A stretch of 64,000 bases of DNA from a virus (taxonomy: Duplodnaviria > Caudoviricetes): the IMG/VR virus record IMGVR_UViG_3300046820_001270, positions 192,001-256,000 of that record; one strand, written 5' to 3'. The position numbers were made by a program, and so were the translations under genes. Each line of letters begins with the position of its first letter. The stretch's first letter is position 1. The notes below the pieces were generated by a model. That model had not been told where the DNA came from, did no database searches, and worked only from the letters and a program-made list of their open reading frames with translations. Below are positions 39,033 through 59,028 of this stretch, piece after piece.

Positions 39033-40313
39033 ATGAGCGAAAAATCAATTTTAGAACAAGCGTTACTTCAAGTGCAAAATCTTGAAGAAGCAGTTAAGCA
39101 AAATGCAAAAGGTATACTTGCTTCAACAATGAAGGAAGAACTTAAAGATTTGCTAAAAGAATCATTGGAAGAAGAGGAAGATGTTGACGTTATGGAACAA
39201 CCAGAAACTGAAACTGATCCTGAAGGAGAGGAAGAACAAGATGTGGCAGCTGACGACGAAGAAACAGACGATGAGTCTGAAGAAGACGTTGATACAGATG
39301 TTGATACAGATACAGACCTCGATAACTTAGACTCAACAGATGACGTTGATTCAGATGTTGACGCTGACGTTGACATGGATGATATGAGTACCGATATGGA
39401 TACTGATATGGAATCTATGGATGACGAAGGTTCAATGGATGATGAAGACGTTATGGATATGACAAGTGCTTCAGACGATGAAGTTCTTAAAGTATTCAAA
39501 GCTATGAAACCAGAAGATGGTATCGTAGTTAAGAAAGACGGTAACAATGTTGAATTCGGTGACGGTGAAGATGAATACATTATCAAATTAGATGGTGAAG
39601 ATTCTGATGTCGATGCTGGAATGGACATGGGTGCTGACTTTAGTTCAGATGTTGATTCTGACGTTGATTCCGACGTTGAAATGGATGAAATGGATATGGA
39701 TGTGGATGCTGATATGGACACTGATACAGATGTTGATGGTGAAATGGAAGCTGACGAAGAAACTATCTATGAAATCGAATTAGACGAGGAAGATGAGGTT
39801 GAAGAACCTAAAAAAGTTGAAGCTACTGAAGCTGCACGTACAAAATCAAACCCTCACGGAAACAAGAATGGTATGAAAAGAGCTGGTTTACCATCTAAAA
39901 AAATGTACAAGGCAGGATCTGGTATCAACGAACAAGTTGAAACATTGAAAAAACAAAATGCTGAATATAAAAAGGCATTAGTATTATTCAAGGATAAACT
40001 AAATGAAGTTGCAGTATTCAATGCAAACTTAGCTTACGCTACACGTTTGTTTACTGAACATTCAACTACAAAACAAGAGAAATTGAACATATTAAAGAGA
40101 TTTGATACAGTTTCTACTATGAATGAATCTAAAGGTTTATTCAACACAATCAAAACTGAATTAGGTTCAAAAACTACGGTTACCGAATCAGTTGCGACAA
40201 AAATCTCTAACACTCCATCAACATCTTCTTCTACAGAGGTATTATCTGAGTCAAAAGCTTACGAAAATCCTCAATTCAGTAGAATTAAAGAAATGATGAG
40301 AAAAATAAAATAA
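39033..40313 (+). CDS. Prohead scaffolding protein (gp22-like)
   Basis: Very acidic, coiled-coil C-terminal half, located between protease and MCP. Confidence 0.85.
   Translation: MSEKSILEQALLQVQNLEEAVKQNAKGILASTMKEELKDLLKESLEEEEDVDVMEQPETETDPEGEEEQDVAADDEETDDESEEDVDTDVDTDTDLDNLDSTDDVDSDVDADVDMDDMSTDMDTDMESMDDEGSMDDEDVMDMTSASDDEVLKVFKAMKPEDGIVVKKDGNNVEFGDGEDEYIIKLDGEDSDVDAGMDMGADFSSDVDSDVDSDVEMDEMDMDVDADMDTDTDVDGEMEADEETIYEIELDEEDEVEEPKKVEATEAARTKSNPHGNKNGMKRAGLPSKKMYKAGSGINEQVETLKKQNAEYKKALVLFKDKLNEVAVFNANLAYATRLFTEHSTTKQEKLNILKRFDTVSTMNESKGLFNTIKTELGSKTTVTESVATKISNTPSTSSSTEVLSESKAYENPQFSRIKEMMRKIK
39230..39760 (+). repeat. Asp-rich DxDxDM/DVDSDV coding repeats in the scaffold
   Basis: GATGTTGATTCTGACGTTGAT-type units. 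Confidence 0.75.
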
Positions 40314-40338
40314 ATTAAAAACAAAATACAATTTTAAA

Positions 40339-42105
40339 ATGGGAGCATTATTAGAATCAGGTATGGTAGGTAACATCGGTCTTAAGCACCTTAGAGTTAT
40401 CAAAGAAGATACCATCAAAAAATGGGACGAATTAGGCTTTTTAGAAGGTCTTGACGGTCACCAAAAAGATAACATCGCACAATTATATGAAAACCAAGCG
40501 TCTTACTTAATCAACGAAGCAGCAGTAGCTGATGCGTCTGGTTCTTTCGAGACTGTAGTTTTCCCTATCATTCGTCGTGTATTCTCTAAATTATTAGCTA
40601 ACGACATCGTGTCTGTACAAGCTATGAACTTACCAATCGGTAAATTATTCTATTTCATTCCTAAAATTCAGGAAAGAGATGGTAATGGTCACTACTCACC
40701 TTATGGTGGTGCGAACAACGATTTAGGTTTACCACAGAACGCACAATCAGGTTATCCTGCTGGAAAGAGAAGTTTATATGATCGTTTCTACGAAGCTAGT
40801 GACGATTTAGAACAAGGTCTTTTTGATTACTCAAAAGGAGCTTTCTCTGTTCAATCATTAACTGTAAATGGTTTCACAACTTTCTCTAATGGTGTGGTTG
40901 ATGTTAGTACAAGTGCAATTGCAACAGGTACAACAAAATCAAATGTTATTTTAGCATTATCTGGTTTCACATCAGCAGGTGCAGGTAAATTAAAAGGACC
41001 AGACGGTAATGAAATGGATTCTGAAGAATTCTTAGCTTCATTACAAGTGTTCACTTCAGATGCTAACTTATTAGCTTTCTTAGGTGCGACTACAGGTACT
41101 TCTTTACCAATCAATATCGTTACTCAAAAGTACGGTAAAGGTATCGTAGAATACGGTGCTAAAACAACTAACTCAACACAAAACTACTATGATATTTGTG
41201 ATGCTGATGGTGTTATCTATGTTCAAGTAGATTTACAAAAATACAGTGCAACTGCAGGTTTCGTTGATTACGTTGTAACTGGTTCAACATTAGCTAGAAC
41301 AGAATTCAACGCATCTTATCGTAAGTATGCAACTTTGGAATTTGAAGAGCAAATTGGTGAAGTATCTTTTGATTTAGAATCAGTAACAGTTTCTGTAACT
41401 GAAAGAAAATTAAGAGCTAGCTGGTCTCCAGAATTAGCACAAGATGTTAGTGCATTCCACAACATCGATGCTGAAGCTGAATTGACAGCTTTATTATCAG
41501 AGCAAATCGCTGCCGAAGTTGACCGTGAAATCTTACGTGATTTACGTAAAGGTGCAGCATGGAAAGCTAAATGGGATTACAATGAGTGGAAATACGGTGG
41601 TGCAAACGGTGCAACTTTACAAGGTTACACACAGAAAGATTGGAACCAAACTTTGGTTACAAAAATCAACCAAATTTCAGCTCAAATCCACAAAACTACG
41701 TTAAGAGGTGGTGCTAACTGGATCGTTATTTCTTCAGAGATTTCTGCAGTATTTGATGATTTAGAGTATTTCCACGTTTCTAACGCAGAACCAGAGCAAG
41801 ATCAATATAACATGGGTATCGAGAAAATCGGTTCAGTAGGTGGACGTTACCAAGTGTATCGTGATCCTTACTTCCCAGCGAACAAGATCTTGATTGGTCA
41901 TAAAGGTAAGTCTTTGTTAGATGCAGGTTATGTATACGCACCATATGTGCCATTACAGTTAACCCCTACAATGTACAATCCGTTCAACATGACTCCGATC
42001 AAAGGTATCATGACTCGTTACGCAAAGAAAATGGTAAACAACCGTTACTTTGGTATCATCGATGTTCAAGGTATTCAATCTTTCGGATTAGATACATTAA
42101 GATAA
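40339..42105 (+). CDS. Major capsid protein (T4 gp23-like)
   Basis: KWDELGFLEG, QAMNLPIGKLF, RKLRASWSPELAQD, EVDREI, YAPYVPLQ, GIMTRY. Confidence 0.97.
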   Translation: MGALLESGMVGNIGLKHLRVIKEDTIKKWDELGFLEGLDGHQKDNIAQLYENQASYLINEAAVADASGSFETVVFPIIRRVFSKLLANDIVSVQAMNLPIGKLFYFIPKIQERDGNGHYSPYGGANNDLGLPQNAQSGYPAGKRSLYDRFYEASDDLEQGLFDYSKGAFSVQSLTVNGFTTFSNGVVDVSTSAIATGTTKSNVILALSGFTSAGAGKLKGPDGNEMDSEEFLASLQVFTSDANLLAFLGATTGTSLPINIVTQKYGKGIVEYGAKTTNSTQNYYDICDADGVIYVQVDLQKYSATAGFVDYVVTGSTLARTEFNASYRKYATLEFEEQIGEVSFDLESVTVSVTERKLRASWSPELAQDVSAFHNIDAEAELTALLSEQIAAEVDREILRDLRKGAAWKAKWDYNEWKYGGANGATLQGYTQKDWNQTLVTKINQISAQIHKTTLRGGANWIVISSEISAVFDDLEYFHVSNAEPEQDQYNMGIEKIGSVGGRYQVYRDPYFPANKILIGHKGKSLLDAGYVYAPYVPLQLTPTMYNPFNMTPIKGIMTRYAKKMVNNRYFGIIDVQGIQSFGLDTLR

Positions 42106-42123
42106 TCTTAATATTATCAATAG

Positions 42124-57843: not shown

Positions 57844-58535
57844 TATGTTGTTGGGTGTCTATTATATTCTTTTTTAGAGTTATAACTATTCTTACCAGTA
57901 TTTTCTGTTCTTTTTAAAATATCTGTTTTAGAACCTACAGTACCATTTTCATCTTTAGGACCTTTACCATTTTCATCACCATCAGAAATTGCGTCAGGGT
58001 TTGTACTATTATATTGATTCTTTTTATTAAATTTATTTTTAACCAAATTTTCGGTTCTTTTTAGAACGTCAGTTTTTGATCCGACTTCACCTGTTTCACC
58101 TTTTTGTCCTTTACCAAACTCATCTCCGTTAGAAATTGCGTCAGGATTATTAACACCATATTGATTATTTCTACCATAAGTGTTTTTACTCATTAATAAA
58201 TTTCTATTCGCAATATCAATCGATGTACCTATTGCAACATTATCATCTACTTGACCTCTACCTTTTTCATCTCCGTCCGCTAATGCATTAGGATTTGTTA
58301 AACCATATTGATTATTTTCATTATATGAATTTCTACCTAAACTTGAAATTCTATTTTGAATATCGATAGACGATCCAACTTTTCCACTATCACCTATTTG
58401 ACCTTTACCTTTTTCATCACCATTAGATAAAGCGTTAATATTTTGACTATTATATAAATTCTTTTCATTATAAGAATTTCTTGTAATAGATTCTTTTCTA
58501 AATTGTTCTGATATCTGATCTAATTTTGTTGCCAT
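57843..58535 (-). CDS. Protein made of ~4.3 tandem 49-aa repeats
   Basis: Unit NxY...NPxAhSxGDExGKG...hGSxxDhxxR. Confidence 0.8.
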   Translation of the reverse strand: MATKLDQISEQFRKESITRNSYNEKNLYNSQNINALSNGDEKGKGQIGDSGKVGSSIDIQNRISSLGRNSYNENNQYGLTNPNALADGDEKGRGQVDDNVAIGTSIDIANRNLLMSKNTYGRNNQYGVNNPDAISNGDEFGKGQKGETGEVGSKTDVLKRTENLVKNKFNKKNQYNSTNPDAISDGDENGKGPKDENGTVGSKTDILKRTENTGKNSYNSKKEYNRHPTT

Positions 58536-58536
58536 A

Positions 58537-59028
58537 TTATAACATTAATTTTTTTATTCTATTAACCTGTTCAAATAAACCTGTTAATTTTATTGACGAC
58601 ACTGAATTTTTTTCTGAATTAGAATTAAATTTAAATGAAGGTAACCAACTTGATTTTTTTGTGTGTTTCTTTAAAAAACTATTTTTTCTTTCTCCTGTGG
58701 TACTTGAAATATCATCCGCTTGTTTTCTACCTTCTTTTCTATTTTGAATTAAATCTCTTTCTCCCTGAAGATGTTGTTTAGACCATGTGTCCATTAAATC
58801 ACCACCAGCCAAGTCATACCTAACTCTATCGGCAACTTTATCCATACCTTGTATGTCATGAATAATTCGTTTAAGTTGACCATACGTTACTTTTTTATCG
58901 GTTAAAAGTTTTTTTGCTCTCATCACTCCATGCACATTTTGACCATTAAGACCGTTAACCGTGTGGTTGATCTTATCTAAAATATTCTGTGGTAAATCAA
59001 AATCCCTATTTTTTAACTCTTTATTCAT
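58537..59028 (-). CDS. Hypothetical protein
   Basis: 163 aa, ending LFEQVNRIKKLML. Confidence 0.75.
   Translation of the reverse strand: MNKELKNRDFDLPQNILDKINHTVNGLNGQNVHGVMRAKKLLTDKKVTYGQLKRIIHDIQGMDKVADRVRYDLAGGDLMDTWSKQHLQGERDLIQNRKEGRKQADDISSTTGERKNSFLKKHTKKSSWLPSFKFNSNSEKNSVSSIKLTGLFEQVNRIKKLML

Follow-up and report, generated by a model that had tools for sequence, protein, structure and literature searches.

Why do three unrelated proteins of one phage carry the same short helix at one of their ends, and what does its likeness to the end of the putative head scaffold mean? The question is raised by a stretch of 64,000 nucleotides (positions 192,001 to 256,000 of the IMG/VR record IMGVR_UViG_3300046820_001270; hereafter the window), which stems from a lake metagenome contig of 334,429 bp that belongs to an uncultured T4-related jumbo phage. 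Its head module follows the T4 gene order: a probable terminase and portal are succeeded by a protease of the gp21 type (PF03420), a putative scaffold rich in acidic residues and a capsid gene of the gp23 type (PF07068). An initial annotation of the window had regarded the helix as a portable tag that loads diverse cargo into the head. Judged from the sequence comparisons presented here, the helix, designated class A tag, is probably (at about 0.6) a label for head loading that can be cut off and that docks in the manner of the scaffold tail.

Class A tag in the window and in related phages

The class A tag is an amphipathic helix of 12-15 residues, found at either protein end, with the pattern L-x-E-x-(I/V)-x-(R/N)-I-K-x-(L/V)-M. 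A six-frame scan of the window confined the full motif to three places, one N-terminal and two C-terminal, on three unrelated proteins:

53652-54056, minus strand: ParB/sulfiredoxin-like protein, 134 residues; N-terminal class A tag at 54015-54050, predicted cut site L-N-E at 54003-54011
57088-57843, minus strand: WYL-like domain with a Pro/Lys/Glu linker, 251 residues; C-terminal class A tag at 57097-57132, N-terminal class C leader at 57805-57843
58537-59028, minus strand: unknown protein, 163 residues; C-terminal class A tag at 58543-58578

The peptides quoted in the initial annotation are present at these positions and lie at true protein ends. Its consensus describes a real tag motif and has to be amended in two respects, as the WYL-like protein has N in place of R and the scaffold fits the second half only.

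The ParB-like protein gave weak matches to ParB/Srx folds (best E 0.001), and in its structural model the tag forms a separate helix (residues 3-14, pLDDT ~60) ahead of the domain. Its gene is an optional clean insertion, missing at the same place in contigs G005 and G007. The WYL-like assignment is based on a weak match to PF13280 (E 0.03) and an atlas value of 0.95 to WYL clusters; the C-terminal tag of this protein is kept in 120 of 120 homologs. Family searches with the 163-residue protein yielded no match, and the protein occurs in all four clade contigs with 61-96% identity. Both C-tagged genes belong to the conserved core of the clade, being present in all four contigs, and the two proteins may be part of the head core and not variable cargo.

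A 12-position profile of the tag was built from the window, G001 and G002, while G004 and G005 were held out. Contig G003 was left out of the comparisons (low coding density, probably frameshifted), and G006 is a near-duplicate of G001. Matches of at least 20 bits numbered three in the window, which is itself within the seed, seven in G004 and three in G005, some of those in the held-out contigs being orthologs. All of them are terminal, one in G004 once its start is corrected, at a share of terminal windows of ~20% of all windows. None was obtained from shuffled proteomes (30 shuffles each of the window, G004 and G005). The hydrophobic moments of the tags range from 0.55 to 0.63, which corresponds to about the 95th percentile of helices in the window.

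An exact DNA scan of viral contigs for the first eleven tag residues returned 96 matches, which fall into 35 unrelated families and, with few exceptions, begin at the first Met of the frame. The residues M14 and G15, which lie outside the scan pattern, are conserved as well. Third codon positions along the tag vary synonymously while the residues are constant, indicating that the constraint acts on the peptide. Among 6,765 proteins, class A tags were found in 70 families and the class B leaders described below in 79. Most of the tagged cargo consists of unknown proteins; matches with E-values of 1e-4 to 1e-6, for one member each, were to an acetyltransferase, an AAA/kinase-like protein, an HD protein, an ADP-ribosyltransferase and a tRNA nucleotidyltransferase. 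By analogy, such enzyme cargo would suit delivery at infection.

Scaffold tail and its co-variation with the tag

The closest relatives of the phage are many uncultured contigs with capsid proteins 75-95% identical to that of the window. The nearest cultured phages are Flavobacterium phage immuto and Microcystis phage Mel-JY01, with a capsid protein identity of ~40%. The following features of the head module are relevant for the comparison:

38260-38943, plus strand: gp21-type prohead protease; PF03420 at 77 bits (cut-off 27), aligns with T4 gp21
38890-38916, plus strand: tail helix of the protease, R-M-x-K-L-M-G, similar to scaffold tail and tag
39033-40313, plus strand: putative head scaffold, 426 residues, 30% acidic, between the protease and major capsid genes (position and composition)
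40275-40298, plus strand: tail helix of the scaffold, R-(I/M)-K-(D/E)-(L/M)-M, shared with the second half of the tag
40339-42105, plus strand: gp23-type major capsid protein; PF07068, with a propeptide that is helical and ends in a predicted (L/I)-x-E site at Glu60 (40507-40518)

We infer the scaffold assignment from the gene's place and make-up, and an equivalent gene position is seen in immuto, Mel-JY01 and RM378. The putative scaffold had no Pfam or PHROG match and no significant similarity to T4 gp22 (score 74; shuffled maximum 91), and its last 120 residues had no sequence match in the PDB. Its tail is conserved in all related loci, far beyond the clade, and the Arg of the tail is invariant across 82 scaffolds of both phage groups. 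Of all non-seed sequences in the window, the scaffold tail matched the class A profile best, at 15.6 bits, where a shuffled proteome is expected to give 0.04 such matches. With a profile built from scaffolds only, the protease tails of G001 and G004 ranked 6th and 8th of 291,126 windows, behind the five scaffolds.

The scaffold tail takes the form R-(M/I)-K-(D/E)-(L/M)-M in the window's group and R-(M/W/F)-(Q/K)-K-L-A-G in the group of immuto and Mel-JY01. In immuto-related phages, scaffold and tags both end in R-x-x-x-L-A-G, a form of which there is none in the window's group. Two unrelated small proteins of immuto (KNV73_gp083, YP_010114600.1, and the product of 25061-25456) begin with the L-A-G form and a predicted cut site, I-T-E. 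With a profile of immuto-group scaffold tails only, these two tags ranked 3rd and 4th of 106,072 windows, directly behind two scaffolds; the same profile gave its two top ranks among 291,126 windows to tags from the window's group. Scanning for this L-A-G form returned 86 matches from 62 families, 75 of them N-terminal and 5 C-terminal. A following (L/I/V)-x-E was found in 54 of 58 cases, the first residue of the site being partly fixed by the pattern.

The type of tag predicts the type of scaffold in 10 of 10 contigs. All five contigs chosen for L-A-G tags have an L-A-(G/N) scaffold tail, and all five chosen for the window-type tag have the tail R-M-K-D-L-M, one of them with a second scaffold too.

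Predicted cut sites, upstream motif and further leaders

The gp21 protease of T4 cleaves after L/I-X-E, and in its capsid-targeting sequence (CTS) the residues for targeting and processing are at different positions (PMC9026906). In the capsid protein of the window, Glu60 of the predicted cut site is invariant in 125 sequences, and in the model of the propeptide a linker of low confidence comes after helices at residues 12-31 and 41-63. An (L/I)-x-E is found within residues 15-24 in 30 of 35 tagged families, at positions outside the search pattern, compared to a background of 13-17% (p ~2e-18). Going by sequence, the (L/I)-x-E beside the tag would be a cut site of the gp21 type. The density of (L/I)-x-E did not separate core from cargo proteins.

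The gene of the tagged ParB-like protein is preceded by a motif that recurs in the head module:

54062-54068, minus strand: TATTTAT, late-promoter-like motif (putative function)

Among upstream motifs TATTTAT is the most frequent, and it stands before the terminase, portal, protease and scaffold genes. The form TATTTAT(A), the reverse complement of the T4 late promoter TATAAATA, was located upstream of 33086, 34922, 38260, 39033, 43897 (minus), 45295 (minus), 54056 (minus) and 59776 (minus), and in immuto before 34 of 223 genes. Operon heads with an N-terminal tag have TATTTAT in 16 of 20 cases, compared to 171 of 551 other heads (p 1e-5, orthologs being counted), and TANNTTTG in 0 of 20 compared to 93 of 551 (p 0.002). 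TATTTAT is a candidate late promoter of the phage family. A sigma-70-like protein (49460-50161, minus strand; weak NCBIfam matches) with homologs in both phage groups is a candidate reader of the motif. The TANNTTTG motifs stand before small genes and match a Bacteroidetes promoter (PMC6847099), which suggests Bacteroidota as host.

The second class of N-termini listed in the initial annotation is also real. It comprises two kinds of leader, a long one of the type K-x-I-x-L-(T/S)-E-x-Q-L... (class B) and a short one (class C). The patterns are 11-16 times enriched at N-termini compared to internal positions in five related proteomes; class B was also found C-terminally, in G001. In a homolog of the ParB-like protein (L417) a class B leader replaces class A, and one further cargo family occurs with an A, B or C leader. 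Besides the WYL-like protein, these genes of the window carry leaders or a possible tag variant:

28615-29592, plus strand: acidic protein, 325 residues; possible tag variant near the start (28663-28692, read from sequence), resembling a 15-bit variant tag of G001
29994-31631, plus strand: charged protein, 545 residues; class C leader at 29994-30032
31638-33038, plus strand: acidic protein, 466 residues; class C leader at 31638-31679
42490-43239, minus strand: protein of 249 residues; class B-type leader, true start probably at 43239 (ortholog starts)
43241-43897, minus strand: protein of 218 residues; class B/C leader at 43835-43897, B and C leaders exchanging among orthologs
59021-59776, minus strand: acidic protein, 251 residues; heads the operon with both C-tagged genes, class C leader at 59744-59776, TATTTAT upstream

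The leader of the 249-residue protein had been overlooked by the initial annotation. G004:100380, considered as a tag-swapped ortholog of this protein, was rejected as a different gene. A hypervariable region of G001 (236000-288000) is dense in genes with class A, B and C leaders, most of them behind TATTTAT. Within the scaffold, a helix at residues 33-45 (39129-39167) ranks in the top 1e-4 of internal windows for likeness to the class C leader, a weak and possible second case of mimicry.

Genetic code table 11 fits, with no recoding. Further genes of the head module were assigned from sequence motifs and from a gene order as in the annotated records of immuto and Mel-JY01:

33086-34867, plus strand: probable terminase large subunit
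34922-36760, plus strand: probable portal

Ahead of the module, 22406-24150 and 27791-28543 appear, as read from sequence, to encode a probable RNA ligase, polynucleotide-kinase-like proteins and a nucleotidyltransferase-like protein. A small basic protein at 37502-37693 (minus strand) resembles ribosomal protein S21, and in Mel-JY01 an RpsU is annotated close to the gene of the protease. Following the capsid gene, a 36-base intergenic stretch (42126-42163) matches two other places in G007 and is a possible regulatory repeat. The run of genes at 7595-21430 (plus strand) features signal-peptide-like starts (secreted or membrane proteins).

Proposed head loading, its alternatives and known systems

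In the proposed mechanism, the portable helix, which occurs at either end of many unrelated proteins, would be made late, together with the head genes. It would dock where the tails of scaffold and protease dock, most likely at the inner face or the propeptide of gp23, as the co-variation suggests, and docking would let the cargo assemble along with the core. Assuming a course as in T4, the gp21-type protease would remove the tag at maturation and the protein would stay in the head. The tag is bracketed by (L/I)-x-E sites: cutting at the one that opens it would set a C-tagged protein free, and N-terminal tags are followed by another. Class B and C leaders would be alternative labels for the same pathway. 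Ejection of tag-carrying enzymes into the host, argued by analogy, is the least certain step, and we propose it tentatively. The reading of the initial annotation is upheld in part: comparison gives good support to a portable tag on late genes that acts at the protein level, is bracketed by protease sites and is linked to the scaffold tail, while head loading and injection would be its putative functions. In the window the scaffold shares half of the motif.

Several observations weigh against this mechanism. The scaffold is identified by its position only, and that of the window shares six positions with the tag, the R-(I/M)-K-x-(L/M)-M half. A profile of the window-group scaffolds ranks the tags moderately, with 15th-16th as the best places and several unrelated internal helices above them. 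Only two phage groups are compared, and the co-variation therefore amounts to one independent contrast; contig G022 carries both types of scaffold (L626, L631). With a length of 269 kb and the scaffolds of both groups, G022 is possibly chimeric. Mel-JY01, RM378, G008, G009, G010 and G012 keep the scaffold tail and show no such tag, and LR756508 was without a tag when searched with one exact pattern. Most of the six genomes that keep the tail and show no such tag do have class C leaders. The counts of the upstream motif are inflated by orthologs, its role as a promoter being putative, and T4 gp22 is without such a tail. Finally, the internal proteins of T4 associate with the core and not with the coat (PMC9026906, PMC5694885).

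In the strongest alternative, the tag would load the head like the T4 CTS by binding the scaffold core (e.g. bundling with scaffold tails) or the portal instead of the capsid protein. In T4, gp22 and the internal proteins are purified together (PMC9026906). Class A can be replaced by class B or C leaders, and class C weakly resembles the helix near the scaffold N-terminus noted above. However, the sole structural example of another protein sharing a scaffold tail involves binding to the coat (PMC5644958), and the helix on the protease tail would suit a common site on the shell. We regard loading via the core as unlikely. Taken together, docking at the site of the scaffold and protease tails and loading via the core make head loading by some route, as far as can be told from sequence, highly probable.

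A late-phase interaction or degradation signal, for instance a handle for a Clp-type ATPase of the phage or for a host protease, is considerably less likely. Short terminal helices are common degrons, and the window encodes such an ATPase (24608-26656), which is found in all four clade contigs. However, immuto has tags and no homolog of this ATPase, which weakens the reading, and a degron needs neither (L/I)-x-E sites nor a tag that tracks the scaffold tail between groups. Among the compared genomes the ATPase is confined to the window's group; its gene adjoins a probable small heat-shock protein gene (24608-27155).

Still less credible is a DNA handle, i.e. a 5' cassette segment shared for recombination shuffling, or an aid for translation start, with the peptide as a by-product. 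Tagged genes do form tandem clusters and clean insertions, and some of their codons are biased, as copying predicts. Against this stand the varying third positions with constant residues, the C-terminal copies kept in all 120 WYL homologs and a separate tag variant that tracks the scaffold protein; recombination may explain the spread of the tag, not its retention. Least likely is a chance likeness, in a genome rich in A and T, of amphipathic helices that are generically rich in Lys and Glu. For it speak the six positions that the scaffold shares and the hydrophobic moments, which are high for the tags but under the 90th percentile for the tails of scaffold and protease (0.42-0.44). For the tag itself it is already refuted, as shuffles gave no match, all strong matches are terminal and 35 and 62 families carry the two tag forms.

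As for docking like the scaffold tail, binding of coat protein by C-terminal scaffold helices, as stated in the initial annotation, has been demonstrated in phage 80alpha (PMC5644958) and not for heads of the T4 type; T4 gp22 is without such a tail. In 80alpha, the CpmB protein of SaPI1 shares a C-terminal RIIK helix-and-hook with the scaffold, so that a non-scaffold protein reuses a scaffold helix of an Arg followed by hydrophobic residues (PMC5644958). The class A motif is likewise shared with the C-terminus of the cognate scaffold, clearly in the immuto group and partially, over six positions, in the window. CpmB is a single protein of a satellite (parasite) that changes capsid size, whereas the tag is found on many proteins of the phage itself, encoded in its late operons. 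The CpmB helix is C-terminal, whereas class A tags are mostly N-terminal and beside protease sites; homology is not claimed.

In T4, gp21 removes the CTS from the internal proteins IPI-III (Mullaney and Black 1996, per PMC9026906). The CTS is likewise a short terminal peptide with an L/I-x-E end on unrelated proteins, and both phages have head genes of the gp20/gp21/gp23 type (PF03420, PF07068 above cut-off). Class C leaders are nearest to it in build. The class A tag is longer, resembles the scaffold tail and is carried by dozens of families; it does not match the CTS in sequence, IPII and IPIII scoring below 0 with its profile. Unlike the strictly N-terminal CTS, it is also found C-terminally (two of three tags in the window, 5 of 86 immuto-type matches). 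Compared by sequence, the tag thus appears to work like the CTS, yet departs from it in sequence and position, and it resembles the mimicry of the 80alpha scaffold tail by CpmB.

Phage P1 DarB, an anti-defence cargo, is loaded into the capsid by a terminal packaging peptide of <30 residues, comparable to the role proposed here; unlike the class A tag, the Dar proteins have no consensus and no reported scaffold likeness (PMC9024508). Many head and ejection proteins of phiKZ and SPN3US are cut after Glu by the prohead protease, as predicted here, but at A/S-x-E and mostly behind long propeptides without a shared portable helix (PMC5694885, PMC9026906). No description of the tag was found in a literature search of incomplete coverage.

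Little is known beyond the T4 CTS and P1 DarB about how large phages choose the proteins that they package. If the tag is a copy of the scaffold tail, this would provide a concrete mechanism and make it possible to foretell which cargo the heads of uncultured jumbo phages hold. Since the cultured immuto has two tagged genes, the claim is directly testable. It is conceivable, although somewhat doubtful, that a wide family of T4-related aquatic phages uses the coat-binding tail of the scaffold as a general cargo tag, placed at either end, removable by the protease and co-evolving with the scaffold. If true, the packaged and injected proteome of these phages (>100 families) would be readable from sequence, and the tag would expose the contact between scaffold and shell of the T4-type prohead.

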